Virus record (IMG/VR): IMGVR_UViG_3300050500_000054
Coordinates: 9,788-73,787 of that record
Reading direction: 5' to 3' (one strand)
From: a virus
Length of the DNA stretch: 64,000 nucleotides
Both the position numbers and the translations under genes were made by a program. A model generated the notes under the pieces. It made no database searches and was not told the DNA's origin. It saw only the letters and a program-made list of their open reading frames with translations. Of the stretch, positions 30,832 to 62,723 are shown piece by piece (within the stretch, counting starts at the first letter, position 1; every line of letters begins with the position of its first letter).

Positions 30832-30841
30832 ACGAAATGGA

Positions 30842-30859: not shown

Positions 30860-30868
30860 CCCAAGGTG

Positions 30869-31288: not shown

Positions 31289-31292
31289 AAAG

Positions 31293-31376: not shown

Positions 31377-31381
31377 ACAAA

Positions 31382-31456: not shown

Positions 31457-31457
31457 A

Positions 31458-31532: not shown

Positions 31533-31538
31533 ACAAAG

Positions 31539-33100: not shown

Positions 33101-33223
33101 TTACTCAACCGATACGGGCACCTTAGCAGTATCGGCAGGCTCTTTGACAACAGGCGAAACGATCTGCCATGAAGTGCTACCATTGGGCAGAGCGTAAATC
33201 ACGTAGCACAAGGGGAAACTCAA

Positions 33224-33709: not shown

Positions 33710-34122
33710 GCACTCAATCGCAGAGTGACGCAAGGTTCAGAACATCGGACCTTGCGGGAATGCGGCAGGCCGGGTCACAAGCCCCGGCCACGGACACCAA
33801 ACCGATTTTGGGCGGTAACGACGGGTGCTAGGATGGTCCGGCAAGGCCCCTAGCAGGCCCCAGGAGCCACGAACGGGGCACCGGCAAGGGGCAACTACCG
33901 GCCCCCGCGAAAGGCGAGCGAAAGTGGGGCCGCAAACGGGCCGGACGGGTAGCAGGGTTTAGAGCATGTTGAGTGCTGAGTAACAGACTGGACGAATGAG
34001 TTAGCAGACTGGACACTAATGAGACTACAGAGACGGACTAGAGTGCTCTGTAAGCCCACAAGCCAGATAGTTAGCCTGCTAGTCTGTTGCTGAGCACTTG
34101 AGCAAACTGAGGAGGAGCACAA

Positions 34123-42411: not shown

Positions 42412-42426
42412 TTAGCGAAGTTGCTA

Positions 42427-42499
42427 GGACAGGTAGCTCAGCGGTAGAGCGCCCAGCTTGAGAGCTGGGAGGTCGGTGGTCCGAATCCACCCTAGTCCT
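42427..42499 (+). tRNA. isolated plus-strand tRNA-like gene with an 8-nt anticodon loop (CUUGAGAG) and an A-A acceptor mismatch
   Basis: canonical D-arm TA-GCTC-AGCGGTA-GAGC, fully paired anticodon stem CCCAG/CTGGG enclosing 8 nt, T-arm GGTGG-TCCGAAT-CCACC, acceptor GGACAGG/CTAGTCC. Confidence 0.4.
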
Positions 42500-42619
42500 A
42501 GCAACAATGTTGGGGGGCAGCTTAACATTCCCAGCGAGGCACTGCACACCTCACAGTGTAGTAGCGGTCGTAGTGTGGAGTTGCCTCCCAACGCCATTTC
42601 CCAATTCGGAGAGGTTAGC

Positions 42620-43063: not shown

Positions 43064-43240
43064 ATGTTCGACAGAGACGAATTCGTGAAGGATGTCAACG
43101 ATTACCTCGAGGACAACTACGGTGAGGATCCCCTCGAGAAACACGAGGAAGAAGAAGCTGTAGAGTCAGCTCTAGAATCTGGCAACTACAGCATCAAGGA
43201 CATCGCTGAGCACATCCTCGACATCCGGTGGGAGATATGA
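43064..43240 (+). CDS. small acidic protein
   Basis: MFDRDEFVKDVNDYLEDNYGEDPLEKHEEEE...; internal Met of ORF 43010..43240. Confidence 0.3.
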   Translation: MFDRDEFVKDVNDYLEDNYGEDPLEKHEEEEAVESALESGNYSIKDIAEHILDIRWEI

Positions 43241-44220
43241 GAGACACAGTGCCTTCGATGCTCATTCTCAGTGGCCTCCCTGCTAGTGGCAAATCGACCT
43301 ATGCCAAGAAGTGGGTGGCTGAGGAGCCAGGCGGTCGCTATCGCCTGAACTATGACGACCTCCGTCGAGAGATGTATGGCCCAGAGTTTGTGTGGAACCG
43401 TCTCCAGGAGGATCTCATGAAGGTCGAAGCAGTCAAGAGGGTGACTGCTGCGATAAACCTCGGGCATGATGTTGTGATTGACAATTGCAACCTCACCCCG
43501 AGGGTTCGAGATCACTGGCGCAACATTGCCAACAACCTCAGCGTCACCAATGTTGAGGAGCATGAACTGGACGTGCCTGTCAGAGAGTGTGTTCAGCGTG
43601 ACGAGCTGAGAGGTGACAACCGTGTGGGGAGAGCTGTCATTGAGAGGATGGCACTGTTCAATGGGCACATTGACTGGAAGGATCCAGAACAGTATGCCCA
43701 GAACATCAAGTTCGTAGTCGTGGATATGGATGGCACCCTCGCCAGCTGTCAGCATCGGGTGAAGTATCTCGATAAGAACTGGTGCCTCGCATGTGACCGT
43801 GCGAGTGAGCCAAAGTTCATGTCAGACAAGTGTGCTTGGTGTGGGACTGGCAACCTCAGGGGGAAGAAAGACTACCGTGGGTTCTTCGCTGGAGTAGCAC
43901 AGGATCCTCCAATCCCGGAGATTGTGGATCTGGTCCGCCTCCTAAGCATGGAGCACTACATCCTCATCGTCAGCGGTCGTCCCACTAGCGATGCGGGTAT
44001 CAGCACTGAGGAGTGGCTGAAGACAAACAACATCTCTTACAAGCACCTCTTCATGCGTAACGGTGGGGATCATCGTGATGATTTCATCGTCAAGCAGGAG
44101 ATTTGCGACCTCCTCCCAAAGGATCGAATCGCGTTTGTCCTCGACGATAGGGATCAAGTTGTGAAGATGTGGAGGGACAATGGAATCAAGTGCTTGCAGG
44201 TGGCTGATGGAAACTTCTAA
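43228..44220 (+). CDS. pnk: polynucleotide 5'-kinase/3'-phosphatase (T4 Pnk-like bifunctional)
   Basis: N-terminal P-loop 'ILSGLPASGKST'; C-terminal HAD phosphatase motif I 'VVVDMDGTLA' and later 'LDDRD'. Confidence 0.7.
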   Translation: MGDMRDTVPSMLILSGLPASGKSTYAKKWVAEEPGGRYRLNYDDLRREMYGPEFVWNRLQEDLMKVEAVKRVTAAINLGHDVVIDNCNLTPRVRDHWRNIANNLSVTNVEEHELDVPVRECVQRDELRGDNRVGRAVIERMALFNGHIDWKDPEQYAQNIKFVVVDMDGTLASCQHRVKYLDKNWCLACDRASEPKFMSDKCAWCGTGNLRGKKDYRGFFAGVAQDPPIPEIVDLVRLLSMEHYILIVSGRPTSDAGISTEEWLKTNNISYKHLFMRNGGDHRDDFIVKQEICDLLPKDRIAFVLDDRDQVVKMWRDNGIKCLQVADGNF

Positions 44221-44282
44221 GCCTGGCTCGTCCCGCTCCGCGTGGGAAGAGATCCGCGCCCTAATCTACAAGTGGCGAACGA

Positions 44283-44590
44283 TGGCGCTCAACCAGGCGT
44301 CATGGCACACCCCGCTGGGCCGTGGGTACGAGATATGCGCTGACGATCTCGACGCGCTCCTGGCGCGGCACACGCCGGAGGAGATGCCGGAAAGTCTGTG
44401 GGGACCCAATGGCAGGAATGCGATGACCGCCGTGGATTATGCCGAGGGGGATCCCATCCGCTGCATCTGCGGCCACCCAGGCGACACCCCAAGCTGCCCT
44501 GTTGACCACGATCAGATTCAACACGAGCGGGACAAGGGCGATCCGCCCGCCGTCCCAGTGGAGACAAGTGAACCGTATCAGCCACGGTAG
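44283..44590 (+). CDS. hypothetical protein inside GC-rich insert
   Basis: about 102 aa, GC-rich codon usage unlike neighbours; internal Met of ORF 44180..44590. Confidence 0.3.
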
Positions 44591-45017
44591 GAGGACTAAA
44601 GTATTCGTAAAGGTCCTCCACCAAGATCCATGCTGCTACTGTGGTAGCACATCAGGAACCATAGACCATATCGTGCCTCTGCATCCGAGGCGTAAGATTC
44701 AGTGGCAACCCGAGCAACGTCGAAGCTGGCCTAACCTGACTGCTGCTTGTATTCCTTGTAACAAGGCTAAGGGCAATCGTGAATTGGTAGAGTTCCTCGT
44801 TCGACAACGACGACAAGAGGTAAAGAAGGAAATCCATGAGCAAAGTATTAACCCTCAAGCGAACCGTTACCCAGAAAGAATGCCCGTGGCTCGATGCGGA
44901 CCTCCCAGCAGGGGCACAGGTGTGGTCATACGAAGGCTGCACATATGGCTGCACATCTCCAAGTGGTGTCGCCGTCTCCGCGAAAGCTGCGGAGGCACCT
45001 TTCTTCGAGCTTCCTAA
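44580..45017 (+). CDS. HNH endonuclease (start codon uncertain)
   Basis: 'CCYCGSTSGTIDHIVPL...NLTAACIPCNKAKGN' HNH motif; upstream GGTAGGAGGA SD-like but no ATG in frame nearby. Confidence 0.5.
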   Translation, partial: SHGRRTKVFVKVLHQDPCCYCGSTSGTIDHIVPLHPRRKIQWQPEQRRSWPNLTAACIPCNKAKGNRELVEFLVRQRRQEVKKEIHEQSINPQANRYPERMPVARCGPPSRGTGVVIRRLHIWLHISKWCRRLRESCGGTFLRAS

Positions 45018-45029
45018 GGATGCAGTCGA

Positions 45030-45944
45030 ATGAGTAAACCAACCCTCGCTGCCATCGTGGCACGGATGCAGGTTCCTGAGCTGACTGAAGGACACAAGGC
45101 AATCATCAATCGTGCCCTCAAGCAGTATGACACTGCTATCGTCCTCTTGGGAATCAGTGGTGCCCAACAGCCAACCGTAAACAACCCCTACTCGTTCGCT
45201 CAGAGGGTGTCTGTCATTCGGAGGCATGCACCTCACATCCACATCTACCCACTGCTGGACCACCCGAGCAATGAGCAGTGGACGAGGAACCTCGACAGAT
45301 TCCTCAGCCTGACGTTCCCTGGATACGAGGTATCTCTACTCTGTGGTCACAATAGTGGTGCTGAGAATGCCTACAAGGCACATGGAGGTAGATTCACGGT
45401 AGACGCATTCGCTGAGAACAGTGGGCAGCGAGGAACCGCAGTCCGTGAAAGCATCAGAGAGAACAACAGTGTGGACTTCCTCCGTGGTATGGCATATGCT
45501 CTGAACCAGCAATTCCACAACCCGTACCCCACTGTAGATATCGCTCTCATCGAGGGTGAAAGTGTGTGGATGGGGCGGAAGGCTGAGGATCCACACAATC
45601 TGTGGAGATTCCCTGGTGGGTTCGTAGAACCAGGCATGAGCCTCGAAGCCACTGTTCGTAAGGAGGCGTGGGAGGAACTTGGAGTGTCGAACCTGACTGA
45701 TCCAGTCTACCTCGGATCTACGATGATCGATGACTACCGCTACAAAGATTCTCCTGAGAGCATCCTCACCAGCATCTTCGCATGCAGTCAGATGAGTGGT
45801 CCTCGACCGAAGGCTGGAGACGACTTGGACGAAGCCCTTGCCATTCCGCTAGAGAACATCTTCGCTGACCCGAAGAGGTTCGTGATCTCAAACCACATCC
45901 CACTGGTCCATATCATCAAACAGAAAACGGGAGCCGCACTGTGA
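45030..45944 (+). CDS. bifunctional NMN adenylyltransferase / Nudix hydrolase (NadM-Nudix, NatV-like)
   Basis: N-terminal nucleotidyltransferase 'TEGHKAII' (HxGH-like); C-terminal Nudix box 'GGFVEPGMSLEATVRKEAWEELGV'. Confidence 0.65.
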   Translation: MSKPTLAAIVARMQVPELTEGHKAIINRALKQYDTAIVLLGISGAQQPTVNNPYSFAQRVSVIRRHAPHIHIYPLLDHPSNEQWTRNLDRFLSLTFPGYEVSLLCGHNSGAENAYKAHGGRFTVDAFAENSGQRGTAVRESIRENNSVDFLRGMAYALNQQFHNPYPTVDIALIEGESVWMGRKAEDPHNLWRFPGGFVEPGMSLEATVRKEAWEELGVSNLTDPVYLGSTMIDDYRYKDSPESILTSIFACSQMSGPRPKAGDDLDEALAIPLENIFADPKRFVISNHIPLVHIIKQKTGAAL

Positions 45945-47305
45945 CAAACCTCCTCCTGACCGATAGCTACAAGCACAGCCACGCAGAGCAGTATCCTCCT
46001 GGCACCAGCAAGGTCTACTCCTACTTCGAGAGTCGAGGTGGGAAGTATGACGAGACTGTGTTCTTCGGGCTGCAATATCTCCTCAAGAAATACCTCCAGG
46101 GAGCATTCGTCAAGCTCGATGACATCTTCGCTGCTGACAAGATGCTGTCCTCACACTTCGGGAAGAAGTTCGACAAAGCCAAGTGGCTGCACATCGTCGA
46201 GGCACACGCGGGCAGGCTCCCTGTAAGCATCCGTGCGCTGCCTGAGGGAACCGTGTGTGGAAACGGCAACGCGATGATGACGGTAGAGAATACCTGTCCT
46301 CAGTGCTACTGGGTGACGAACTGGATTGAAACACTCCTCGTCCAGACGTGGTATCCCACTACCGTAGCAACACAGTCCCGATACATCCGTAAGATGATCT
46401 TCGACTTCCTCCAGGCCAACGGCACGCCTGAGGGAATCGGGTTCAAACTCCACGACTTCGGCTTCCGTGGTGTGTCCAGTGTCGAGTCAGCTGGCCTGGG
46501 AGGTGCTGCCCATCTGGTGAACTTCTCAGGAACCGACACCTTGGCTGCCCTCTACATCGCCAGTGAATACTACGGTGAGGCATGTGCTGGGTTCAGCATC
46601 CCAGCATCCGAGCACTCTACCATCACAAGCTGGGGCAGGGAGCACGAGGTTGACGCCTTCCGCAACATGCTGGAGAAGTATCCAGAGGGCCTCGTTGCCT
46701 GCGTGAGTGACAGCTTCGACATCTTCAAGGCATGTGACGACCTGTGGGGAACGCAACTGAAGGATCGCATCCTCGCTCGTCCAGGCACTCTTGTCATCCG
46801 TCCTGACAGCGGTGATCCAATCTCCGTCATCATGACGATGCTGAGCATCCTCGGAGAACGGTTCGGGTATGAACTCAACAGCAAGGGATTCAAGTCCCTC
46901 GACCCGCATGTCCGCATCATCCAGGGTGATGGCGTGAATGCAGTCACCATCATGAACATCATCAGTGCCATGCACGACCAGGGCTGGTCGGCTGACAACA
47001 TCGCATTCGGGATGGGTGGAGCACTGTTGCAGGACCTCAACCGCGACACCAACAGGTTCGCATTCAAGTGCTCCTCGGTGACTGTCAACGGGGAGGAACG
47101 CGACGTGTGGAAGGATCCAACCACTGATGCTGGGAAGATCAGCAAGCGTGGGAGGTTGGTGGTTCTGCCTACGGCTCATGGGTTGGCGACATTCCGAGAG
47201 AATGCAGCGAACATCACAGACAACCAGTTGCATGAGGTGTTCCGCGATGGACGGTTGTTGGTGGATCAGAAGTTCTCCGACGTTCGAACGAGAGCGAGGG
47301 GCTGA
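45941..47305 (+). CDS. nadV: nicotinamide phosphoribosyltransferase (NAMPT/NadV)
   Basis: N-terminal 'TDSYKHSHAEQYP' and 'GFRGVSS', 'GTDT' motifs typical of NAMPT; 454 aa; ATGA-coupled to upstream NMNAT gene. Confidence 0.7.
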   Translation: MTNLLLTDSYKHSHAEQYPPGTSKVYSYFESRGGKYDETVFFGLQYLLKKYLQGAFVKLDDIFAADKMLSSHFGKKFDKAKWLHIVEAHAGRLPVSIRALPEGTVCGNGNAMMTVENTCPQCYWVTNWIETLLVQTWYPTTVATQSRYIRKMIFDFLQANGTPEGIGFKLHDFGFRGVSSVESAGLGGAAHLVNFSGTDTLAALYIASEYYGEACAGFSIPASEHSTITSWGREHEVDAFRNMLEKYPEGLVACVSDSFDIFKACDDLWGTQLKDRILARPGTLVIRPDSGDPISVIMTMLSILGERFGYELNSKGFKSLDPHVRIIQGDGVNAVTIMNIISAMHDQGWSADNIAFGMGGALLQDLNRDTNRFAFKCSSVTVNGEERDVWKDPTTDAGKISKRGRLVVLPTAHGLATFRENAANITDNQLHEVFRDGRLLVDQKFSDVRTRARG

Positions 47306-47508
47306 TGACTCCCAAAGAGAAGTATCTGTGTCGTGTTCTTGCTAGGCTGATTGATACCAAGTTCGATGGTGAGGTATACCAATTTGAAGAAGCGAACGAG
47401 GTGGTAGAGAGGTTCATTGAAGTTCACAACGAGGATACGCCTTGTCGCTACGAATACGAATGCGTAATGACAGGCCGGTGCCCTCGTGATCCGGTTTGTA
47501 ACAACTGA
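47305..47508 (+). CDS. small hypothetical protein
   Basis: 67 aa, ATGA-coupled. Confidence 0.3.
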   Translation: MTPKEKYLCRVLARLIDTKFDGEVYQFEEANEVVERFIEVHNEDTPCRYEYECVMTGRCPRDPVCNN

Positions 47509-47517
47509 GGAGTTGAG

Positions 47518-48003
47518 ATGATGACACTACCACTTTCCCTAGTAATTATCCACTTTCTGGGTGATTTCCTCGCCCAGAACGATTGGATGGCGATCCACAA
47601 GTCCAAGCGGTTGGATGCCCTCACGCTCCACGTCTTGGCCTACACGTCTGTCCTCTTTGTGGTCCTCATCTCCTTGGACTACAGGAGTGACTTGGCTCTA
47701 TTGTTCGCTGTGACCACCTTCCTCGCTCACTGGGTGACGGATTTCTTCACGTCCAAGCTGAGTAGGAAGCTGTTCTGGATGACTGGTCCATACACCGGAG
47801 TTACCCAGCTGAGGATGGGACAGCCAGAGAATGTTGAGGGTGCTACTACCATGCACTTCCCAACAGGTGAAACCGTCTACATCGACCACGAGGGCCAAGG
47901 CATACAGTCCCGCCACTGGTTCTTCTGCTGGATTGGATTCGATCAGGTCCTCCACTACGTCCAGCTGGCTGTGACGTATCAGTGGTTGTTTGGAGGCGTG
48001 TGA
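47518..48003 (+). CDS. multi-pass membrane protein (DUF3307-like HxxxDxxxQ motif)
   Basis: 'HFLGDFLAQNDW' and three or more hydrophobic helices. Confidence 0.35.
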   Translation: MMTLPLSLVIIHFLGDFLAQNDWMAIHKSKRLDALTLHVLAYTSVLFVVLISLDYRSDLALLFAVTTFLAHWVTDFFTSKLSRKLFWMTGPYTGVTQLRMGQPENVEGATTMHFPTGETVYIDHEGQGIQSRHWFFCWIGFDQVLHYVQLAVTYQWLFGGV

Positions 48004-48158
48004 TGTTCATGTGCAAGAACTGCCACGACGAGAATGCACACTTCGGATTTTTCAAAAGCATCGGTCCATGTGAAGGCTGCGGTAAGACAGCTGCTTGCAT
48101 TGACTGCCACAACATGAACTGCTGTCCTCGAAAGAAAGAAGCAGGCCAAGAAGACTAA
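48003..48158 (+). CDS. small Cys-rich protein
   Basis: MFMCKNCHDENAHFGFFKSIGPCEGCGKTAACIDCHNMNCCPRKK; about 51 aa; hand-translated. Confidence 0.3.
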   Translation: MFMCKNCHDENAHFGFFKSIGPCEGCGKTAACIDCHNMNCCPRKKEAGQED

Positions 48159-48200
48159 GAAACCGTAACGAAGATTTCCCCCTCGACCCTAGGAGCATCA

Positions 48201-49157
48201 ATGAAACTACGCCACCTCACCCTTCTCGCACTGCTGATCGCAACTCCCGCATCAGGTCAGCAGCTGTTCTGGGATCAGCCATCAATGTCACCATCGGAGG
48301 CCCAGGTAGCAACCTACCACATCCTCCTCAACGGTGCTCAGGCAGCATCACCTCTCATCCAGGTGTGTTCTGCAACCGACGTGACCACTTGTTCAGCTGC
48401 CCTCCCAGGTGCTCAGGCTCCTGGCACCTATCAGCTGGGGCTACGTGTCACAACTCCAACTGGAACTGCCCTCAGCTCAACTATCCCGTGGGTTGTTGGC
48501 AATCAGCAGCCACCTCCTGAACCTGTAAAGCCAACCACACCTGTGCTGACAGCAACAGTGACTGGACCTAACAGTGTGCGCCTCTCTTGGATCGACGTAT
48601 CCAACGGTGCTGGTGGTGTAGCAAGTTATAACCTACGACAGTCACCGCCTCCTCATGCCTGGGGCCTAGGTCCTGGTAGCCCTGTCATCGACCTCGGACT
48701 AGTGGCTGGGTTGAGTGTAGGACAGACACGCACGTTCGATGTAACCACCCTCGCATCTAACACTGTGTACGACTTCCAGATGGTCGCCTACCGTGCTAAC
48801 CCTGCTGGTTCAGCACAGCAATTCAGTGACCTCAGCAATGTGGTGCAGATCAAGACACCTGCTGTAACTACACCACCTGTGCCTCCTGTGGATCCCATCA
48901 CAAAGGCAAGTATCACCAATCGTCGCTGTGACATCACGCTAGTAGTCGAAGTTCCTCTCTCCTACAACGGAGTCGGTAGACTACAGGTTCAACAACTGGT
49001 AGGCTCTACGTGGACGAACGTCAGCTCTCCCATCCAGAGAGCACCGTATAGCCTCACCCGTGACAACATCAACCACGGGACGAAGTTCCGAGGTTCGTGG
49101 TCAAAGACTGGTGCCAATGGGCAACTGTCTCAGGAAGCAACCGTTAATTGCCCATAA
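48201..49157 (+). CDS. secreted beta-rich protein (FN3/Ig-like repeats)
   Basis: signal peptide MKLRHLTLLALLIATPASG; Thr/Pro/Val-rich beta pattern. Confidence 0.4.
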   Translation: MKLRHLTLLALLIATPASGQQLFWDQPSMSPSEAQVATYHILLNGAQAASPLIQVCSATDVTTCSAALPGAQAPGTYQLGLRVTTPTGTALSSTIPWVVGNQQPPPEPVKPTTPVLTATVTGPNSVRLSWIDVSNGAGGVASYNLRQSPPPHAWGLGPGSPVIDLGLVAGLSVGQTRTFDVTTLASNTVYDFQMVAYRANPAGSAQQFSDLSNVVQIKTPAVTTPPVPPVDPITKASITNRRCDITLVVEVPLSYNGVGRLQVQQLVGSTWTNVSSPIQRAPYSLTRDNINHGTKFRGSWSKTGANGQLSQEATVNCP

Positions 49158-49320
49158 TGGGATCAACACCTGGAGCTAACAAGGAGCGAAAGGCTCTGTT
49201 AGACAAGAACAAGGAAATCAATTGCGGCCACTGTCCATACAACCGTGGAGAGAACCGTAAACGAGTCCCTCGTGAACGAGTCGAGAAGTATCGTAAACTC
49301 TACGAAAGGAAGAGGAAACC

Positions 49321-49749
49321 GTGAAAACAATCAACAGCAGCTCAACCATCGCCCGTTTCGCCTATCGTCAGACATGGCCATTCAACGTCCTAGGATGGGA
49401 AGCGAGGATGCCATCTCAGACATCACTCTGCCCTCTGTTCTGGCGCACAGCTGTCGGTAGCCCTGTGATATGGCTGCTGGGTGTGGTTTGCATCGCTACG
49501 CTGATTCCTCTGTTCTATGTGACTACCTACCCTGTTGTAGTGGGTGTGATGGCATTGAAGAAGAAAATCAACAGGGCAAAGCACGCACGCTGGGAGAAAC
49601 TTACAAGCCTCTCTCCAGAGGAATACCGTGCCCGTAAAGAGGCCAGCATCGGTTACAAGCTGGATCAGTTCATGTCCCTCCTCTTCGACTTCGTTGCTGC
49701 GAAGAAGGAAAAGGTCTGCCCAACAATTCGTATCAATTACAAGAAGTAG
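49321..49749 (+). CDS. membrane protein
   Basis: two TM helices then basic tail. Confidence 0.3.
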   Translation: MKTINSSSTIARFAYRQTWPFNVLGWEARMPSQTSLCPLFWRTAVGSPVIWLLGVVCIATLIPLFYVTTYPVVVGVMALKKKINRAKHARWEKLTSLSPEEYRARKEASIGYKLDQFMSLLFDFVAAKKEKVCPTIRINYKK

Positions 49750-49757
49750 GAGAACAC

Positions 49758-49994
49758 ATGAAACTGTTCCTCTTCATGATGTGGATCATTGCGATCCTCG
49801 CAGCCATTAGCTGCACCCCAGTAACTCAGCCATCAGATGCTGTGGACGCACCACGACAACCAAGAAACTCACTTGGTGTTAGATACCTAGGTGATGGAAT
49901 CTACCTCATGGAGACTCCTCATCGTTGCATCTTCACAATCTTTGGTAATGGTATTGCTGTAGTAGACCACAACCCTGCCATTGGATGTCTATAA
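49758..49994 (+). CDS. small lipoprotein
   Basis: signal with lipobox-like 'LAAISC'. Confidence 0.35.
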   Translation: MKLFLFMMWIIAILAAISCTPVTQPSDAVDAPRQPRNSLGVRYLGDGIYLMETPHRCIFTIFGNGIAVVDHNPAIGCL

Positions 49995-50003
49995 GGAGAA
50001 AAC

Positions 50004-50525
50004 ATGGACCGCACAATCTCAATCATCGCTGGCCTCATCATCGCTGCCGCCGTAGTCAAGGGCTGCTCGTCGTCTACGCCTGCGGCTCCGACTCCTCCAT
50101 CCCAGCAAACCGCCGTGGATGCCGTCCCAGCACCTGAGCCGTTCTGCCTCTCCTTCGCTCCGAAGCTGGAGGAACCCAATGTCCAGCAGAGTCAGGCTGG
50201 CCCGAGAGTTGAACTGGAGTATTACCCGATCCTCAACACCGTCACTGGTAAGCTGATCTCCCGCTACGAGGTCCTCTTCCAGCGAATGAGTTTTCAGAAC
50301 GTCTGGGAAGATGTATCCATCCCATACGTCCAAGTTGAGGTCGATCCAAACAGAGACAAGCATTTCATCTCATGGCTGATTCGCAACGACCCTGACGGTG
50401 AGGGACGTGGTGGACCGAATGGCACCTACCGTGCTCTAGTTCGTGCTCACCTGGGTGAGGAATGCCACCCTGCTCGTCGTCTAACTGACTGGGCAACCTC
50501 AGAGACATTCTCGGTAAGCCAATGA
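50004..50525 (+). CDS. lipoprotein
   Basis: 'AAVVKGC' lipobox then Pro/Ala-rich linker. Confidence 0.35.
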   Translation: MDRTISIIAGLIIAAAVVKGCSSSTPAAPTPPSQQTAVDAVPAPEPFCLSFAPKLEEPNVQQSQAGPRVELEYYPILNTVTGKLISRYEVLFQRMSFQNVWEDVSIPYVQVEVDPNRDKHFISWLIRNDPDGEGRGGPNGTYRALVRAHLGEECHPARRLTDWATSETFSVSQ

Positions 50526-51571
50526 CAAGCCCATACGGAACACTACACCTCGTAGCCAAGAACGGAGAAGTCGTGACCAGTTGGCACAGCTATCCATCGA
50601 TCTACAACCTCGGCCACAAGGCTATTGACAAGCTCCTCGACCGCCCTGTTCTGGTAGAGGAGAAAGTCGATGGCAGCCAGTTCAGCTTCGGTTACTTCCC
50701 CGATGCAGAACCCGGCCTCGAACTGAAAGTGAAGTCAAAGGGAGCTATCATCCATGTGGACGCGCCTCCAGCAATGTTCCGCAAAGCTGTGGAAACGGTT
50801 AAGAGGATCGCCACAGAGGTGGGACTACGCAGCGGGTGGACATACCGTGGAGAGGTCCTGGCGAATCCACACCACAACACTCTCGCTTACGATCGTGCGC
50901 CCACTGGGAACATCATCATCTTCGACATCAACACTGGGGAAGAGGCATACCTGGATTACGATTCGAAGGCCGAGGAAGCAAAGCGCCTTGGTCTGGAAGT
51001 CGTCCCGCTCGTGTTTCGAGGTATCGTTCCAAGTATTGAAGCCTTTCGAGAACTGATCGACAAGCCCTCGATCCTTGGCGGTCAGAAGATGGAAGGTGTC
51101 GTGATCAAGCCAGAGGATTACCTCTACTTTGGTCTTGACAAGAAAGTCCTCATGGGCAAGTTCGTGAGTGAAAAGTTCCGTGAGGTCCACGGAGCAAGTT
51201 GGAGGGCAGCGAATCCGACCACTGGAGATATCATCCAGGTTCTCGGAGAACGCTACCGCACCCCTGCACGGTGGAACAAGGCTATTCAGCATCTCGACGA
51301 GGCTGGTAAGCTGGAATACTCCGTGCGGGACATTGGTAAGCTGATTGGTGAGATCGGTCCTGACATCGAGCGTGAGTGCAAGGATGAAATCATGGAAGAC
51401 CTCTATGCCTACGCTCGTAAGCACCTCATCCGTCACTGGACCAGAGGGTTCCCCGAGCACTACAAGGAACTCCTCCTGGAGCGTCAGTTCGAGAAGTATC
51501 AGGAACCCCCAGACATCGCACCTCCTGGGGTGGAAGTGTTTGAACAATTCCCGGAGGAACCCAAGTCATGA
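50522..51571 (+). CDS. RNA ligase (Rnl2/DRB0094-like nucleotidyltransferase)
   Basis: adenylylation motif I 'EEKVDGSQF' (KxDG), downstream 'WTYRGEVL', 'EGVVIK', 'KFVSEKFRE' fit ligase motifs III-V. Confidence 0.6.
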   Translation: MTSPYGTLHLVAKNGEVVTSWHSYPSIYNLGHKAIDKLLDRPVLVEEKVDGSQFSFGYFPDAEPGLELKVKSKGAIIHVDAPPAMFRKAVETVKRIATEVGLRSGWTYRGEVLANPHHNTLAYDRAPTGNIIIFDINTGEEAYLDYDSKAEEAKRLGLEVVPLVFRGIVPSIEAFRELIDKPSILGGQKMEGVVIKPEDYLYFGLDKKVLMGKFVSEKFREVHGASWRAANPTTGDIIQVLGERYRTPARWNKAIQHLDEAGKLEYSVRDIGKLIGEIGPDIERECKDEIMEDLYAYARKHLIRHWTRGFPEHYKELLLERQFEKYQEPPDIAPPGVEVFEQFPEEPKS

Positions 51572-52579: not shown

Positions 52580-52948
52580 ATGCACAAGATTTTCGTATAC
52601 GGCACTCTCATGGCAGGCTGTGGCAATCACCGCCTCCTGAAGGACTCGAAGTTCCTCCAGGGCGGCCGAACGCTACCGCACTTCACAATGATCTCCCTCG
52701 GTGGGTTCCCTGGTGTCCTCCCAGACGGCAAGAATGCCATCGAAGGTGAGGTCTACGAGGTATCCGATCAGGACCTCATCCATCTGGATCAACTGGAAGG
52801 GCATCCAGACTGGTATCGTAGAACGCCGACACGACTGCAAGACGGCACGGAGGTGGAAATTTACCTCTACCCGGAAGCACCGCCTCGGGTTCATGTAATC
52901 GAATCAGGCAGTTGGAGACAGTATCGAGGAGGAGTGCATGGCCGTTAG
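52580..52948 (+). CDS. gamma-glutamyl cyclotransferase-like (AIG2/GGCT fold)
   Basis: 'KIFVYGTLMAGCGNHRLL' (YGTL...G) plus catalytic Glu candidate 'IEGEVYEV'. Confidence 0.6.
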   Translation: MHKIFVYGTLMAGCGNHRLLKDSKFLQGGRTLPHFTMISLGGFPGVLPDGKNAIEGEVYEVSDQDLIHLDQLEGHPDWYRRTPTRLQDGTEVEIYLYPEAPPRVHVIESGSWRQYRGGVHGR

Positions 52949-54146
52949 CAAACCCATGATGATCTACAGCGATAACGCCACTATCGGCTGTGATCCAGAA
53001 GTATTCGCCAGAGACAAGGAGGGCACGGTTGTGGCATCCGATGTCCTCATCCCTGCGAAGGGACTGTTAGTGGATGGAGGTTACGGTCTAGCATCTGTGG
53101 TTCGTGATGGTGTTCAGATTGAACTGCACCCTTCACCGACCTCGTGCCGAGCAAATGTCAGCAATAGTCTCCAGAAGTGCTTCAGGACACTTGCCAAGGC
53201 GGCCACTGAGAAGGGCCTCCAAATCTCCTTCGATCAGGTCGTGACACTGGACAAGAAGGCACTCGCTGGGATGTCTGAGGATGCTCAGCGCCTCCGGTGT
53301 CTCCCAAGCTTCAACGCCTACAACGCTGTCGGTCAGACAGTGGATGGCAAGAAGTATCGGAAGCGTAGTGGTGCTGGTCATATCCACGTCGGGTCCGGTG
53401 TTTTCGGTCCTGACAAGACTTACATCGATCACAACAAGGGCATCAAGGCATTCGACATGCTTGTTGGCATCCCTGCTGTCCTCTGCGATCGTGATCCAGG
53501 TGCTGCGGAACGTCGTAAGGTGTATGGCCTGGCTGGTGAATATCGCCTCCCAAGTCACGGTGTGGAATACCGCACCTTGTCGAACTTCTGGCTTCGCAAC
53601 TATGCCCTGTTCAGCCTCTTCGCTGGGATGGCAAAGATTGCACATGGGGTGGCGATAACTGAATACTACGTCAAGCGGCATGCATACATCTTCAAGGCAA
53701 CTGGGATGTATGACCGCTACCACGACAGGCCGATGGAAATCCTCATGGACGGTGTGGATGAGATGGACTTGCAGGATGCCATCAACCACAACGACTTTGA
53801 CCTCGCCCTGAAAATCTACGATAAGCACGTAGAGCCATTCCTCAAGACCGTAAAGTCTGAGTATGGCATCATGGGACAGCGGCAGTTTTCTCCGTCGAGT
53901 GGAAACCTCGACGAGTTCCGTCACTTTTTCACGAAGATCAAGGAAGAGGGCCTCGGTTACTGGTTCAAGGAAGAACCACTTCAGCACTGGCTTACGAAGC
54001 GTGAAGGGCACGGCACCGGATGGGAGGATGGCTTTGTACCCACAATCCGTGCTGACATGGCAGCTACGAAGAAGAAAATCATCAAGGTCGGAGCCAACGT
54101 GGCGAGGCTCCGAGATGCTCGTGGTCGATTCGCCAAAGTTGCATAG
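52938..54146 (+). CDS. glutamine-synthetase-like carboxylate-amine ligase (GCS2/YbdK-type amidoligase)
   Basis: N-terminal 'IGCDPEVF' (GxExE-like) and central 'GAGHIHVGSG' matching the YbdK 'GxHVHVG' motif. Confidence 0.5.
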   Translation: MAVSKPMMIYSDNATIGCDPEVFARDKEGTVVASDVLIPAKGLLVDGGYGLASVVRDGVQIELHPSPTSCRANVSNSLQKCFRTLAKAATEKGLQISFDQVVTLDKKALAGMSEDAQRLRCLPSFNAYNAVGQTVDGKKYRKRSGAGHIHVGSGVFGPDKTYIDHNKGIKAFDMLVGIPAVLCDRDPGAAERRKVYGLAGEYRLPSHGVEYRTLSNFWLRNYALFSLFAGMAKIAHGVAITEYYVKRHAYIFKATGMYDRYHDRPMEILMDGVDEMDLQDAINHNDFDLALKIYDKHVEPFLKTVKSEYGIMGQRQFSPSSGNLDEFRHFFTKIKEEGLGYWFKEEPLQHWLTKREGHGTGWEDGFVPTIRADMAATKKKIIKVGANVARLRDARGRFAKVA

Positions 54147-54155
54147 GGAGGTCAG

Positions 54156-54650
54156 ATGGAAACAAACGTAGTTGCAGAGGGTGGAGATGTGGTTATCTCC
54201 ACACGCCTTCGACGCACCAAAGATGGTCTGATGGTGAATGTCAAGGTTTCCCCAGAGGTGGAGGAACTATTCCGCACCTGGGGTGGGGCACGGACGGAGG
54301 AGTGTAAGCTCTATGGCAGGATGTGGAAGCCTGTCACTGAGACTCAGCAGCTCCAGCTGTGGCGATGCTTCCAGACGCATCACAACACCGGAGGACACTC
54401 ATCAACCCCAATCTTCTGGAAGGGCGGACGGCTGCCTATGGAGGATGGAATTGTTGACATCTCGTTCATTCGACTCGTAGGAGCGAGCAACCCTGAGGGA
54501 GTTACCTTCTACGTAGATACCCTCATTGGCTACTCTGAACTTGATTCCGTCGCGGATAAGATCAAGACAGCCACTGGATGGTTCTATGGCGAATTCGTCA
54601 AGCCTGTGGAACTGAAGATTGACGTGCAACTGTTGAATGGAGGACGCTAG
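54156..54650 (+). CDS. hypothetical protein within the amidoligase cluster
   Basis: 164 aa, ATG 8 nt after previous stop. Confidence 0.3.
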   Translation: METNVVAEGGDVVISTRLRRTKDGLMVNVKVSPEVEELFRTWGGARTEECKLYGRMWKPVTETQQLQLWRCFQTHHNTGGHSSTPIFWKGGRLPMEDGIVDISFIRLVGASNPEGVTFYVDTLIGYSELDSVADKIKTATGWFYGEFVKPVELKIDVQLLNGGR

Positions 54651-54655
54651 TTGCC

Positions 54656-55423
54656 ATGCCGAAGAATCGTGTCAAGAATGTAGGTGTTGAACTGGAGGGT
54701 GGTTGGATTAAGCCTCCCCAGCCACTACAGCGAGATGGTAGCCTGAAATTCCACGACATCGTGCATTACGAGGCAGGTCGTGGACTTGCTGGACCTGCTC
54801 CTGCTGTAGCTGCATTCAAGAAGCTCTACGTCACTGGTGCAGTGTTGGAGGAACACAAGATCCCTCAGGTAGGTGAGATCGTCAGTCCAATTCTGGAAGT
54901 TCCAGAAGTGGAGGACTACATCAGGACCAACTACCCTAATATCGTAAACGAAACCTGTGGCCTCCACGTCCACATGAGCTTCAAATACAAGCTGAACTAC
55001 CAGCGGCTGATGACGGAGGACTACACTCGGAAGATGGTAGTAGGGCTGATTGACTGGGCGAAGAGGAATGACCTCCCGAAGGATCACCCTCTCTGGCCAC
55101 GGTTGATGAAGCCAAACCACAACCACTGTGCTCATGTTTACCTCGGTGATAACCAGGTGACTATCGCCGGAAAGGATTACAACAGTCGAGGAACCAACTA
55201 CAGCCGGTATACAGCAATCAACTACTGTTGGGCACAGCACAAGACAGTCGAGTGTCGCCTACTCAGTATGTTTGACACGGCTGACCAAGCGGTGAGTGCG
55301 GTGGGTGAGGTGATTCGTATCACGAACCTCTTCCTCAGCAAGATCAAGAGTCGGGAGAAGAAGTTCAGTGTGGTGATCAAGCGCGGTGCAACCCTTGTGG
55401 ATCACCGTCGGATTCGAGTTTGA
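54656..55423 (+). CDS. second GS-like amidoligase (Amidoligase_2-type)
   Basis: N-terminal 'VGVELEGGW' (GxExE) and 'CGLHVHMSF' (HxH) motifs. Confidence 0.45.
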   Translation: MPKNRVKNVGVELEGGWIKPPQPLQRDGSLKFHDIVHYEAGRGLAGPAPAVAAFKKLYVTGAVLEEHKIPQVGEIVSPILEVPEVEDYIRTNYPNIVNETCGLHVHMSFKYKLNYQRLMTEDYTRKMVVGLIDWAKRNDLPKDHPLWPRLMKPNHNHCAHVYLGDNQVTIAGKDYNSRGTNYSRYTAINYCWAQHKTVECRLLSMFDTADQAVSAVGEVIRITNLFLSKIKSREKKFSVVIKRGATLVDHRRIRV

Positions 55424-55436
55424 GAGGAGACTGTCA

Positions 55437-56660
55437 ATGTGTGTGATTCTCGTAGCGCGTAAGGACATTCGGCCGTCGGAGGAAATGATCCAGTTGTCGT
55501 GGGATGCCAATCCACAGGGTGCTGGTGCAGCATGGAAGGATCCTGAGGGGCTGGTGAACTGGCGGAAGGGAATGACGCTGGAAGAGGTGCAGGAACTGAA
55601 CAAGAAGCTGCCCTTCCCGTATGTTCTACACTTCCGTGTGGCATCTGCTGGAATGCTGAAGATCCCTGGCCTCAACCACCCGTTCCCGGTGGAGAAAGAT
55701 GCGTCGATCTCCACTGTGGGTCGATTCGTCGGTGATGTCGTGTTCCACAATGGCCACTGGGCCAGCTGGAAGCACGAAATGAAGGACCTCGCTGCTAAGG
55801 GTGGTTGGAAGATCCCGGAGGATCCGTGGTCTGACAGTCGTGCAATGGCCTGGGTTGCGAGCCAGATCGGTGTCGGATTCCTCGAATTGCTCGATGAGAA
55901 GATCGTCCGTTTCGGTCCTGATGGTGTCCATATCATGGGTCATATGGGTCACGGTGGGTGGGACGAGGTGGATGGGATCCTCGTGTCGAATAGGGGGTGG
56001 GAAAAAAGAGTCACTCACTCGAACTATACGACGCCTCCTGCGTCCATGTGTGGGGTAGAGAGGGCCGGGGGTACCTCTCGCAACACGACCTTTCAGAGAT
56101 CGACAGGAGAGCTTGCTCAAACAGAAGGAAGCGAGGGAAATCAGCAAAAAGCAGTACAAGCGACGAATCAAGCTGCTACGGGCGGAGATCAAAACGGCCA
56201 AGAAACGGTAGACACTTACGAGAACGAGGAACTCCAGAAGTGGCTTCGGGATCATCCTCACAACGCTCACAGACGGCATGTGGCGTTGAATGAGGAGAAG
56301 TGCCAGGTGTGCTTCACAAAGGCTGCAAACGTGTTCGATGGTCCGAATCAGAGATTCGGCCGTTGCTGGAGCTGCTATGATCGGCAGAAGAAGGCTCCGA
56401 TCATCGAGGCAGCTATCGTGGTTCCTGCTAGTGTGGCGATTGCAGCGAAGTATCACCGCTGTGAGCAGTGCAAGATCAACAGTGCTGCAACACAGTTGAC
56501 AGACGGGAGCAAGAAGAGGATCTGTGGAACCTGCTGGAGGCAGTTGGGGAAGCCGGATGTGGAATACAACGGTATGAAGATCACAGAAGGCAACAACAAC
56601 ACAGAGTTGGAACGTCGCAGGGCTGATGCAGCACGAGGTATCAGTCGAGTGGTTGGGTAG
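55437..56660 (+). CDS. class-II (Ntn) glutamine amidotransferase-like protein with C-terminal zinc ribbons
   Basis: start 'MCVILVA' (Cys2 nucleophile after Met removal) with SD GAGAGGAGA; C-terminus has four CxxC pairs. Confidence 0.5.
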   Translation: MCVILVARKDIRPSEEMIQLSWDANPQGAGAAWKDPEGLVNWRKGMTLEEVQELNKKLPFPYVLHFRVASAGMLKIPGLNHPFPVEKDASISTVGRFVGDVVFHNGHWASWKHEMKDLAAKGGWKIPEDPWSDSRAMAWVASQIGVGFLELLDEKIVRFGPDGVHIMGHMGHGGWDEVDGILVSNRGWEKRVTHSNYTTPPASMCGVERAGGTSRNTTFQRSTGELAQTEGSEGNQQKAVQATNQAATGGDQNGQETVDTYENEELQKWLRDHPHNAHRRHVALNEEKCQVCFTKAANVFDGPNQRFGRCWSCYDRQKKAPIIEAAIVVPASVAIAAKYHRCEQCKINSAATQLTDGSKKRICGTCWRQLGKPDVEYNGMKITEGNNNTELERRRADAARGISRVVG

Positions 56661-56668
56661 GAGGAACA

Positions 56669-57517
56669 GTGATCAGAATCGACGAACAGGAAGCAGGAGT
56701 CATCAAAGCTCTCCTCATCGCACGAGGGGATCAGTATGACTTGGATCTGGTAGAGAAGATGGACCAGAGGCGGAAGTTCAACGACGAGACACTTCTGGAT
56801 GTTCTGGTCAAGCTGGTCAGTGGTCGGTTTGTCACCAATAGGGTGAGTAACGCCACTGTCAAGGCGCTCAGAGGTGCGCTGTTGACTCCGAAGGAGTTGG
56901 TGGAGGCGATAGCACAGGATGAGAGCTTCAAGTGTGCAGGATGTGCTCAGGAGCTGTCTGAGGCAGAGATGGTCAGCGTGGATGGCACGTTGCTCTACTG
57001 TGCCGCCTGTGTGAGTCCTCTCACCGTGCGTTGCCCAGGTCACGGTAAGCCTATTGCACTTCCAGAAGGTGCAATTAAGCGAATCGTGAGGAAGACAATC
57101 AAGGAGTGTGCTCAGTGTGCTAATCCTGAGAGGACACCTGCTCCTGAGGTTCAGGATGGTCCTGATAACAGAGAGCCGCCCGTGTTTAACGCTGCACCTG
57201 GATTTGGTGGCTGGTTGGGAGTAGGCACGCCAGCACCGCTTGATGAAGGATTGCGGGATGCAATAGAGCGGCAGAATCGGTTGGATGAGGAGTTCTTCAG
57301 ACGTGAACAGGAACGTGAGGAGCTGAGACGTAGGGTTGTCATTGGTGGCAGGCGTATGGGTCGTGGTGCGCGTGATCATGCGGAGCCTGAGCCTCAGACG
57401 CTTCGTCCTCCAGATCGTGCATGGGCTACCATCGCAATGCAGCATCGTACAGAACCATTGGCCTACGATATTGAAACCCCGGAGCCAGCAGCACAGCCGC
57501 CGGAGGAGCGAGAGTAA
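56669..57517 (+). CDS. zinc-ribbon protein (CAGCAQ...CAAC, CPGHG, CAQC)
   Basis: 282 aa with central Cys cluster and Arg/Glu-rich C-terminus. Confidence 0.3.
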   Translation: MIRIDEQEAGVIKALLIARGDQYDLDLVEKMDQRRKFNDETLLDVLVKLVSGRFVTNRVSNATVKALRGALLTPKELVEAIAQDESFKCAGCAQELSEAEMVSVDGTLLYCAACVSPLTVRCPGHGKPIALPEGAIKRIVRKTIKECAQCANPERTPAPEVQDGPDNREPPVFNAAPGFGGWLGVGTPAPLDEGLRDAIERQNRLDEEFFRREQEREELRRRVVIGGRRMGRGARDHAEPEPQTLRPPDRAWATIAMQHRTEPLAYDIETPEPAAQPPEERE

Positions 57518-57912
57518 TGCGGATAGAGCAGTTCGATCAGATCCTCAACTCTCGAACAGTTCCTCCGAATGAGTTGATGGAGCAAAACCTGGATGAACTT
57601 GAGAAGCGTGTAGAGGAATATCTCAAGGAGGCAAAGAAGAGGGAAGCGGAGGAGGAGCAGGAGGATCTCCAACAGATCAGGGAAGGCAAGGAGAAGGACG
57701 AGTTCGAGGATGACTTCTTCGATCCAGAGGATTTCTACGAAGCCCTGGATCTGTTGGAGAGTTGTGCAAAGGTCCTGAAGAAGCTCATGAGTGATGATCC
57801 GAATGAGGAATATCCGCCAGCGTTCCTGAACAAGCTGTCGAACCTCTCTACGGATTGTTACTCGTTCGTCAATCGTTTCATCGTCAACAAGGATGAGGAG
57901 TCAGAGGTATGA
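57517..57912 (+). CDS. acidic coiled-coil protein
   Basis: 131 aa, Glu/Asp-rich. Confidence 0.3.
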   Translation: MRIEQFDQILNSRTVPPNELMEQNLDELEKRVEEYLKEAKKREAEEEQEDLQQIREGKEKDEFEDDFFDPEDFYEALDLLESCAKVLKKLMSDDPNEEYPPAFLNKLSNLSTDCYSFVNRFIVNKDEESEV

Positions 57913-58796
57913 TCTACGTATTTCGTCAGGCCAGCAGCAAGGGTGCTCGTGAGTTGTCGGAGAGTATCGCATGGGGACGACGGGCACGGAATGAGGATCT
58001 CCTCCGCCGTCGGGTGAAGGCTGGGGATCTGGTCATCGCGTGGGGCGATCATGTGAACCTACCGGATGGCGTGTTGGCGTTGAACAACGTCCCTCTCTCG
58101 AACAAGTTCACGGATGCGGAGAAGCTGAAGGCTGCCGGTGTGCCTACGGTGGAAGTGTCGAGGGTGATGCCTCAGCCAGTTCGCCAGACGGCTCCTCCTG
58201 ATCCTGCGCTGAACGCATTCGCTCGGTTGCTCAACACTGTAGACCTCCGTGGTTTGGGCCACAGGAGTTTGGAGGTAATCCGACAGATCACTGATGTTCA
58301 GGAAAGGATCAACACCTATCTGGAAGCTGTTGCTCAGCCTGCTCCTGTTGCTCCGCCTCCACAGGTAGTGGGCGAGTGGGTTGGCCGTAACAACAACCAC
58401 GTCGGTGGGAATGATCTCCTCAATCCACCCCGTCTGCCTGACTTCTACGTGAAGAAGGAAGTCCTGAAGGGTGAGGTTCGTATCCACAGCTTCCTCGGCA
58501 AGTCAATTCGAGCGGGTGTGAAGGCTCCTCGTGAAGGTGTCGAGCAGCATCCGTGGGTGCGGAGTTTTGACGGAGGTTGGCGTATCGTGTATGACAACTT
58601 CAAGTCAAAGGGTGCCCAGCGTGAACTCGCAGCGAAGGCTGTGGAGGCACTTGGGTTGCAGTTCGGTGCAGTGGACATCGGGATCAAGGAGGATGGCAGT
58701 CTGATCGTGCTGGAAGTGAACAGAGCGCCCGGTCTTGAAGGTGGGACGGTTACGGCCTATGCGGGTGCAATTCAGCAGCATCTGGAGACGGTATGA
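57909..58796 (+). CDS. ATP-grasp ligase (RimK/GshB-like)
   Basis: C-terminal 'FGAVDIGIKEDGSLIVLEVNRAPGLEG' is the classic ATP-grasp Mg/ATP-binding segment. Confidence 0.6.
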   Translation: MIYVFRQASSKGARELSESIAWGRRARNEDLLRRRVKAGDLVIAWGDHVNLPDGVLALNNVPLSNKFTDAEKLKAAGVPTVEVSRVMPQPVRQTAPPDPALNAFARLLNTVDLRGLGHRSLEVIRQITDVQERINTYLEAVAQPAPVAPPPQVVGEWVGRNNNHVGGNDLLNPPRLPDFYVKKEVLKGEVRIHSFLGKSIRAGVKAPREGVEQHPWVRSFDGGWRIVYDNFKSKGAQRELAAKAVEALGLQFGAVDIGIKEDGSLIVLEVNRAPGLEGGTVTAYAGAIQQHLETV

Positions 58797-58953: not shown

Positions 58954-59172
58954 GTGAGAGCATTCCGGTTAGTGCGGAAAGAGGATGTTTCAGGAGTGTC
59001 TGGAACTGGAGTTGTTGCGGAGGGAGTGGAGTTCCATGATGGACAGGTTGCAGTGAGCTGGTATGGACGCTATCACTGCGTTAGTATTTGGCCGTCTATC
59101 AAGGATGTAGAGGCCATTCATGGGCATGAAGGCAGGACCACTGTAGAGTGGGCAGAGAGGGAGATGTCATAA
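58954..59172 (+). CDS. hypothetical protein
   Basis: 72 aa. Confidence 0.3.
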   Translation: MRAFRLVRKEDVSGVSGTGVVAEGVEFHDGQVAVSWYGRYHCVSIWPSIKDVEAIHGHEGRTTVEWAEREMS

Positions 59173-60466: not shown

Positions 60467-60770
60467 AATGTGCATGAGAATCGAAATTGCCATCACGATT
60501 CATCACGAGAGCGGGAAGGAGAACCTGAAGCAGATGAGGGATAAGTATCTAAACTTCAGGGACCATGTGGAGGACATGCAATTGGCGGGGTGGCTACCCC
60601 GAGGGACCATTGACTGGACCCTCAGGGCAAAAGGCGTGAGTGTGAATGTTACCCGACCTCCTAAGTCTGCTGAAACCATCGGGCCAGTTGTTCCTCCTGG
60701 CGATTCTCGACAGGGTGTTCTTCTACTCCCTTCGGGACGGCCAGACGATAGCCAGCCCTACGGAGTATAG
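60467..60770 (+). CDS. possible small protein convergent with and overlapping the helicase gene 3' end
   Basis: ATG preceded by GGAGGA; about 100 aa; overlaps the C-terminus of the minus-strand gene by about 110 nt, so the call is doubtful. Confidence 0.2.
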
Positions 60771-62534: not shown

Positions 62535-62723
62535 ATGGATACTGCTAATAACAGACTAGAAGTTGAACGCATCCGAGGTAGGATGGACCAGAAGATTTAC
62601 ACTCTGGAGGATATGAGGATTCTATTGAGGATCTGTGACGAACAGGTAATCGAGTTGGAGGGATTGCGTGAGCACATGAACAACCTGTATGAACTCTCAG
62701 AGGAAACACGAATTGGACACTAA
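62535..62723 (+). CDS. small hypothetical protein
   Basis: 62 aa. Confidence 0.25.
   Translation: MDTANNRLEVERIRGRMDQKIYTLEDMRILLRICDEQVIELEGLREHMNNLYELSEETRIGH

Follow-up and report, generated by a model that had tools for sequence, protein, structure and literature searches.

The subject of this report is a pair of genes in a stretch of viral DNA (IMG/VR record IMGVR_UViG_3300050500_000054, positions 9,788 to 73,787); the whole stretch, of 64,000 nucleotides, is called the window below, and coordinates are counted from its first letter. One gene encodes a T4-type polynucleotide kinase/phosphatase (Pnkp) and the other a divergent Rnl2-like RNA ligase. We believe, with a probability of about 0.7, that the two genes constitute a heal-and-seal RNA repair pathway of the classical kind in an uncultivated phage of about 77 kb. 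The homology of both proteins, their intact catalytic residues and the conservation of the gene linkage within the phage lineage are direct observations. The phage is considered uncultivated since the region has no nucleotide match among GenBank phages; both exact proteins are found on the ENA metagenome contig k141_4192334 (76.8 kb). The features on which the argument rests are as follows.

43228..44220, plus strand: Pnkp, T4-type bifunctional 5'-kinase/3'-phosphatase, 330 amino acids (aa), GTG start; supported by Pfam, PDB and fold matches
43273..43299, plus strand: kinase P-loop GLPASGKST, residues 16-24 of Pnkp
43723..43737, plus strand: phosphatase motif I DMDGT, residues 166-170 of Pnkp
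43768..43914, plus strand: Cys-rich insert in the HAD domain of Pnkp, residues ~181-229
50522..51571, plus strand: predicted ATP-dependent RNA ligase, divergent Rnl2-like, 349 aa; supported by Pfam PF09414, hhalign and Foldseek
50579..51166, plus strand: nucleotidyltransferase domain of the ligase, residues ~20-215
50657..50680, plus strand: ligase motif I EEKVDGSQ, residues 46-53
51167..51499, plus strand: all-helical C-terminal domain of the ligase, residues ~216-326

In the proposed course of events, a metal-independent ribonuclease would break an RNA, most plausibly a host tRNA whose anticodon loop has been cleaved by a defence nuclease. The C-terminal DxDxT phosphatase of Pnkp would strip the 2',3'-cyclic or 3'-phosphate by way of an acyl-phosphate formed at Asp166, the N-terminal P-loop kinase would phosphorylate the 5'-OH, and the Rnl2-like ligase, adenylylated on Lys48, would pass AMP to the 5'-phosphate and seal the 3'-OH/5'-PO4 break. 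In T4 Pnkp the acyl-phosphate nucleophile is Asp165 (PMC3592404). We infer the activities of both enzymes, their common substrate, tRNA as this substrate, and the counter-defence purpose; the trigger may be a nuclease of the PrrC, RloC, VapC or PARIS type.

The kinase/phosphatase and the ligase

By its sequence, its modelled fold and all the catalytic residues checked, the first gene product is a T4-type kinase/phosphatase, and the corresponding activity is predicted. Pfam gives AAA_33 (residues 11-141, E 2.7e-18) and HAD_PNKP (residues 221-330, E 5.6e-33), the PHROG match is polynucleotide kinase (E 1.7e-68), and the phmmer search of PDB retrieves T4 Pnkp (1ltq, E 4.7e-24) and Pnkp1 (4xrp, E 1.9e-20). 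An alternative start is used by the public gene call, which begins at the ATG at 43237 and yields 327 aa. For the AlphaFold2 (AF2) model, with a predicted local distance difference test score (pLDDT) of 93 and a predicted template modelling score (pTM) of 0.87, the top 12 Foldseek matches are all T4 Pnkp; the best is 2ia5 (E ~4e-18, full length, ~340 aligned columns).

A residue-by-residue reading of the PDB alignment places kinase residues K22/S23/D43/R46/R128 opposite T4 K15/S16/D35/R38/R126, and phosphatase residues D166/D168/R177/R251/D285/D306/D307 align with T4 D165/D167/R176/R213/D254/D277/D278. According to the literature of the Shuman laboratory, the T4 residues in both sets are essential. 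In an alignment of 30 homologues, K22, D43, R46 and R128 of the kinase and D166, D168, G169 and T170 of the phosphatase motif are invariant, and the other catalytic positions of both domains are invariant or conserved in at least 90% of the sequences.

The distinctive part of the protein is the Cys-rich insert between HAD motifs I and II, with C185, C188, C201 and C204 arranged as CxxC...CxxC. The span is 49 residues in the window Pnkp (from 180 to 230) versus 11 in T4 Pnkp (from 179 to 191), i.e., about 38 aa are extra; in the AF2 model it forms short beta strands with pLDDT of 71-89. The spacer from motif I to SGR exceeds 50 aa in 97 of the 114 closest parseable Pnkp homologues; at least three Cys are found in 85 of these long forms and a CxxC in 78, and each of the 17 short, T4-like forms has fewer than three Cys. 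The insert with its Cys pattern is kept in about three quarters of the clade. It is probably a Zn ribbon placed where the HAD cap would be; many members of the environmental Pnkp clade have it, and it is without counterpart in the solved structures. We consider a Zn-ribbon-bearing variant widespread among environmental phages to be of modest value.

On profile alignment and a structural model, the second gene product is homologous to T4 Rnl2 over its full length, C-terminal domain included, though divergent (about 20% identity), and a ligase activity is predicted for it. It matches Pfam RNA_ligase PF09414 (E 3.4e-15, residues 42-201) and the PHROG RNA ligase (E 9.5e-22). The hhalign comparison of the ligase family profile with a T4 Rnl2 profile (five sequences from diverse phages; the T4 sequence used is 100% identical to a T4 record) gives a probability of 96.4% and E 1e-9, residues 20-320 of the query being aligned with 1-331 of T4; against the single T4 Rnl2 sequence the match is weak (E 0.014), and significance is reached only with the five-sequence profile. 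The AF2 model (pLDDT 81.5) begins with a nucleotidyltransferase domain of the alpha/beta kind and continues with a purely helical one, with helices over 217-326, and its best Foldseek match is T4 Rnl2 (2hvr, E 1.1e-9), with 319/319 residues of the full-length 2hvr covered. Rnl3, Rnl5, REL1 and Rnl1 rank below and match through the nucleotidyltransferase core only, T4 Rnl1 being only the 21st. No match of the window ligase to PF09511 (Rnl1-type) was found at E <= 0.01; some members of its family have weak precomputed PF09511 matches.

Motif I is aligned with REKIHGTN of T4 Rnl2, and K48, the predicted adenylylated lysine, corresponds to T4 K35; none of K48, D50 and G51 varies among 30 homologues. 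The other motifs, taken from invariant columns, are Ia (S72-K73), III (E111), IIIa (F134-D135), IV (E191-G-x-x-x-K196) and V (K213, in D206-K-K...K213); hhalign maps K73 to T4 R55, E111 to E99, F134/D135 to F119/D120, E191/K196 to E204/K209 and K213 to K225. The residues named for motifs III, IIIa and IV are either invariant or shared by at least 90% of the family alignment. In the C-terminal domain, hhalign aligns YRTPARWNKAI with T4 YVTLNRVNNVI, where R250 corresponds to R266, and DIGKLIGEIGPDIE with T4 DFGKVMGLTVQDIL, where D281 corresponds to D292. In T4 Rnl2, R266 and D292 matter for function, and both R250 and D281 are invariant in the family.

These results agree with a reading of the same DNA made from the sequence only, which had proposed a Pnkp with a P-loop kinase and a DxDGT HAD phosphatase and an Rnl2-like ligase with a KxDG motif: GLPASGKST and DMDGT are in place, K48-V-D-G lies in a protein aligned with Rnl2 from end to end, and the Pfam search suggested there matched AAA_33, HAD_PNKP and RNA_ligase. 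Loss of the motif I lysine, named there as an objection to the ligase assignment, is not the case, K48 being present and invariant.

Among the candidates scored in public metagenomes, 1248 homologues of Pnkp and 4589 of the ligase were found with E <= 0.001; both are therefore conserved genes, and chance reading frames are excluded. PDB sequence searches with the ligase alone and with the 30-sequence family profile returned no true matches, so that the family is remote from the characterised ligases. It is large, mostly phage-borne, apparently uncharacterised and without a solved structure. Copies with ~40% identity also occur on megabase-scale contigs of metagenome-assembled genomes (MAGs) of Longimicrobiales/Gemmatimonadetes (loci L190-L196 and L212 in our numbering); no Pnkp was found near these copies, which may be cellular or prophage.

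Gene linkage and neighbourhood

Pnkp and the ligase are on the plus strand with 6.3 kb between them, in accordance with the sequence-only estimate of about 6 kb on the same strand, and belong to a long plus-strand gene run that extends from ~32 kb to ~60 kb of the window. The arrangement is best judged from the close relatives of this Pnkp. Seven were sampled (50-54% identity, on contigs of 72-99 kb), and each has an RNA ligase 0.7-5 kb downstream of Pnkp on the same strand. The ligase belongs to the window's own PF09414 family in L164, L166 and L169, is of the Rnl1 type (PF09511) in L165, L167 and L170, and is a 436-aa PHA02142-like ligase in L168. In six of the seven, as in the window, a gene for a COOH-NH2 ligase is downstream of the RNA ligase, in most cases with GGACT before it. 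This indicates a non-orthologous displacement among Rnl2-like, Rnl1-type and third-type ligases in the slot beside Pnkp.

Since unrelated ligase types are swapped in one slot, selection appears to maintain an RNA ligase next to Pnkp; and since the close relatives always have a ligase just downstream, even one of another family, functional coupling is supported. We consider this displacement in a fixed slot good evidence that healing and sealing enzymes are retained jointly in the lineage. More widely, an RNA ligase is within 10 kb of Pnkp at 20/27 full-length Pnkp loci (IMG/VR loci included), which is a lower bound as the queries were derived from the lineage only. In cultured Arthrobacter phages, an annotated polynucleotide kinase adjoins an RNA ligase gene. 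With ligases of different types in one syntenic slot, the sibling phages provide a natural test of how far ligases can replace one another in RNA repair.

The siblings carry further genes beside Pnkp: RlaP with Ro60/TROVE-vWA (L165, 7200-9616) and Thg1 with Ro60/TROVE (L166, 1590-4768). TROVE, RlaP and Thg1 are recognised RNA-repair accessories (PMC7824862, PMC12776372). In L167, a permuted tmRNA (6906-7150, Rfam 71.8 bits) is located near Pnkp. TROVE, RlaP, Thg1 and the permuted tmRNA of the siblings are absent from the window. Its other features of interest are listed below.

28964-31617, minus strand: array of 23 tRNA genes, 11.6 kb from the repair pair
33719-33786, plus strand: full-length type-P5 twister ribozyme (Rfam RF02684, 54.8 bits versus gathering threshold 37.6, model positions 1-58)
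42426-42500, plus strand: solitary odd tRNA-like gene (Rfam tRNA, 51.6 bits), 0.73 kb upstream of Pnkp
44439-45017, plus strand: HNH endonuclease open reading frame (ORF) with CxxC...DH...N...CxxCN (Pfam HNH, 28.7 bits)
45030-45944, plus strand: NMNAT (cytidylyltransferase-like)-Nudix fusion, overlapping the NAMPT gene
45941-47305, plus strand: NAMPT (Pfam/PHROG)
50004-50525, plus strand: 173-aa ORF with a 4-nt overlap (ATGA) with the ligase start and a lipoprotein-like N-terminus (…LIIAAAVVKGC)
52580-52948, plus strand: GGACT gamma-glutamyl cyclotransferase, downstream of the ligase
52938-54146, plus strand: phiEco32-type COOH-NH2 ligase, downstream of the RNA ligase
54656-55423, plus strand: Amidoligase_2-like ORF, weak match
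57909-58796, plus strand: ATP-grasp/R2K-like ORF, weak match
~58954-59172 (L001 18433-18651), plus strand: Acb5-like ORF, 72 aa (precomputed Pfam PF26761)
60661-61620: AAA_25 gene, ~10 kb downstream of the ligase
62689-63786: PD-(D/E)XK gene, ~10 kb downstream of the ligase

The location of the pair among counter-defence genes (NAMPT, NMNAT-Nudix and Acb5-like), with the 23-tRNA array 11.6 kb away, speaks for the repair pathway; the large tRNA array had been noted from the sequence alone and is indeed there. NMNAT-Nudix and NAMPT resemble the NAD+ reconstitution of NARP2, a pathway countering NAD+-depleting defences (bioRxiv 10.1101/2024.02.11.579819); in the relatives, these genes are upstream of Pnkp instead. 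The Acb5-like ORF suggests a further anti-defence gene, and sibling L166 has an Acb5 match at the same relative position. The HNH ORF is probably a homing-type gene inserted just after Pnkp; the public gene call misses it and has two overlapping small ORFs in its place, and L166 also has a weak HNH match between Pnkp and the ligase. After NAMPT and before the ligase are the genes for a DUF3307 membrane protein and for an FN3-like protein that is secreted. The 173-aa ORF has no Pfam or PHROG match and, among the first 83 loci fetched, was found only on three contigs of the same phage. The block 52580-58796 looks like a peptide/amide-ligase module. The neighbourhood as a whole is a variable accessory, counter-defence region rather than an operon devoted to RNA repair. 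Taken together, RNA repair, NAD+ salvage, the Acb5-like gene and the tRNA array would give this phage of middling size a compact island with several lines of counter-defence.

The solitary tRNA-like gene has an anticodon arm of 18 nt, which can be read as an 8-nt loop, CUUGAGAG, or as a stem of 6 bp closing a 6-nt loop; the T-loop of the gene reads UCCGAAU. An exact search of IMG/VR for this anticodon arm gave no match. An arm of this length occurs in only 2 of 230 tRNAs from 175 loci; the other is a plus-strand tRNA of L164 (13659-13732, loop CAUUGUAG), 0.14 kb after the L164 ligase, so that each of the two is within 1 kb of Pnkp or the ligase, in two related phages. The idea that an 8-nt-loop tRNA is a "pre-compensated" substrate for wobble-excising nucleases of the RloC type was rejected: the two tRNAs differ in sequence, the L164 loop has no U33 in the needed register, and the short variable arm of the window tRNA does not fit tRNA-Leu. 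The twister ribozyme is found in the intergenic gap after the ORF 33169-33663, not far into the run of plus-strand genes.

Assessment of the alternatives

Several observations weigh against a repair pathway. The 6.3 kb between Pnkp and the ligase are occupied by unrelated genes, and promoter and terminator scans over 42-53 kb gave results at or below shuffle expectation, so that an operon structure is not shown. For T4 Rnl2, no in vivo role is known. The T4 ligase that reseals PrrC-cut tRNA-Lys is Rnl1 and not Rnl2 (PMC3400036), which makes the T4 precedent an analogy to the pathway rather than to the ligase type of the window. The parallel with the T4 pair drawn in the sequence-only reading accordingly holds for Pnkp plus an ATP-dependent RNA ligase and fails for the kind of ligase.

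A further difficulty comes from the ligase side. A T4-type Pnkp is within 10 kb in only 5/80 viral ligase loci and in 0/38 genome loci (bacterial and archaeal assemblies, all MAGs, from many phyla), i.e., 5/118 combined. The viral ligase loci that lack Pnkp adjoin genes for AAA_25, Prim-Pol, PD-(D/E)XK, DnaB and PolA, and AAA_25, Prim-Pol, PD-(D/E)XK/Cas4, RNase_H_2, DnaB, PolA and ERF predominate when 134 flanking ORFs are counted by Pfam family; no kinase, phosphatase or other end-healing enzyme is among the 25 commonest families. A conserved ligase neighbour was also sought by all-against-all clustering of ORFs within 5 kb at 81 loci, and only antisense artefacts were obtained. The ligase family may therefore have another primary role, and the pairing with Pnkp is a property of the phage lineage of the window and not of the ligase family.

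This is the ground for supposing that the two genes are independent, the ligase sealing nicks in replication or recombination (in DNA or RNA-DNA hybrids) and Pnkp cleaning damaged DNA or RNA ends alone. Beyond the absence of Pnkp from 75/80 viral and 38/38 genome loci and the commonest neighbours of the ligase (AAA_25, Prim-Pol, PD-(D/E)XK/Cas4, RNase_H_2, DnaB and DNA_pol_A), the supposition can draw on the window's own AAA_25 and PD-(D/E)XK genes downstream of the ligase and on the action of T4 Pnkp on DNA ends as well. However, the slot beside Pnkp interchangeably holds ligases of the Rnl1 type, which is the tRNA-repair type of T4, and the window ligase has the Rnl2 C-terminal domain and not the OB domain of DNA ligases; we consider independence unlikely. 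Similarly unlikely is a reading in which the clade of the window ligase normally serves a replication/recombination module without a healing partner, its primary role being other than classical RNA repair (e.g., sealing RNA-containing nicks in replication), and has been recruited here to a Pnkp-linked slot in which ligases are swapped under the pressure of defence nucleases, with the Zn ribbon of Pnkp and the 8-nt-loop tRNAs as possible elements of this arms race that recognise substrates or act as decoys.

Alternatively, instead of mending damage inflicted by the host, the pair might process RNAs of the phage itself, namely, twister products or phage tRNAs including the odd tRNA beside Pnkp. 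A full-length twister is on the same strand, its cleavage products would carry ends that Pnkp heals, and the two tRNAs with 18-nt arms are close to the repair genes; nevertheless, the twister does not travel with these genes (none of the 175 related loci has its core pattern), the two tRNAs are not homologous in sequence, and there is no sign that either needs ligation. We regard such a role as quite improbable. Decay of one or both genes into inactive remnants is very improbable indeed. It could be suspected from the large insert in the HAD domain of Pnkp and from a non-canonical residue at one position of ligase motif V: in the hhalign register, T4 K227 is opposite Val215, which counts against an active ligase and hence against the repair pathway. 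The invariant K207 and K208 lie just before motif V, in a loop modelled with low confidence, and an alternative register would pair K208 with K225; these lysines may compensate for V215, or the register of motif V may differ. Against decay, the remaining catalytic residues are intact and invariant across homologues, both ORFs are of full length, the insert keeps its Cys pattern in most of the clade, and the models have pLDDT of 93 and 81.5. The heal-and-seal pathway is in our view the best interpretation, and it is this pathway that is compared below.

Comparison with known systems

T4 Pnkp (PseT, 1ltq/2ia5) is the best match of the window protein in sequence and in fold, and has the same order of an N-terminal P-loop 5'-kinase and a C-terminal DxDxT 3'-phosphatase; unlike the window protein, with which it shares only ~25% identity, it has no Cys-rich insert of ~38 aa. 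The Pnkp1-Rnl-Hen1 system of Capnocytophaga gingivalis (4xrp) is similar in that Pnkp1 is the second-best PDB match (E 1.9e-20 by sequence, E 2.8e-17 by fold); it differs in that a Hen1 methyltransferase was not found in the window and that its Rnl chain is outside the top 50 fold matches of the window ligase. With T4 Rnl2 (gp24.1, 2hvr/2hvq/1s68) the window ligase shares the N-terminal segment, motifs I, Ia, III, IIIa and IV and the helical C-terminal domain. The differences are the canonical KxDG in motif I of the window ligase versus KIHG in T4, K73 in place of T4 R55, and the ambiguous register of motif V, with V215 opposite T4 K227.

As a pathway, the closest precedent is the repair of tRNA-Lys against PrrC by T4 Pnkp and Rnl1, which also combines a phage end-healing enzyme with an ATP-dependent RNA ligase (PMC3400036). 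Relatives of the window phage have an Rnl1-type ligase in the same slot, while the window ligase is of the Rnl2 type and has no PF09511 match. The counter-defence suites of jumbo phages include the PKN-HAD kinase-phosphatase, Rnl1/Rnl2, tRNA arrays, NAD+ salvage, TROVE, RlaP and Thg1 (Iyer et al. 2021, PMC7824862), which that paper groups as means by which phages withstand attacks on translation. This set of families is also found in the window and its relatives taken together; the window phage, at ~77 kb, is not a jumbo phage, and the window itself lacks TROVE, RlaP and Thg1. Vibriophage KVP40 encodes Pnkp, an Rnl2-type ligase and NadV/NatV NAD+ salvage, and would share this three-part content with the window (Pnkp, Rnl2-like ligase, and NAMPT plus NMNAT-Nudix); at the nucleotide level, the region resembles no GenBank phage.

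Phages are known from textbooks to counter anticodon nucleases by Pnkp together with an RNA ligase; the present example therefore adds little conceptually, and an RNA-repair pair in the window would not surprise a specialist. A very abundant Rnl2-like clade that is without structure or biochemistry and mostly uncoupled from end-healing enzymes is of modest value. Relative to the known systems, what is new consists of minor variants only: the Zn-ribbon insert of Pnkp, the divergent and abundant Rnl2-like clade, and the interchange of ligase families in one slot.

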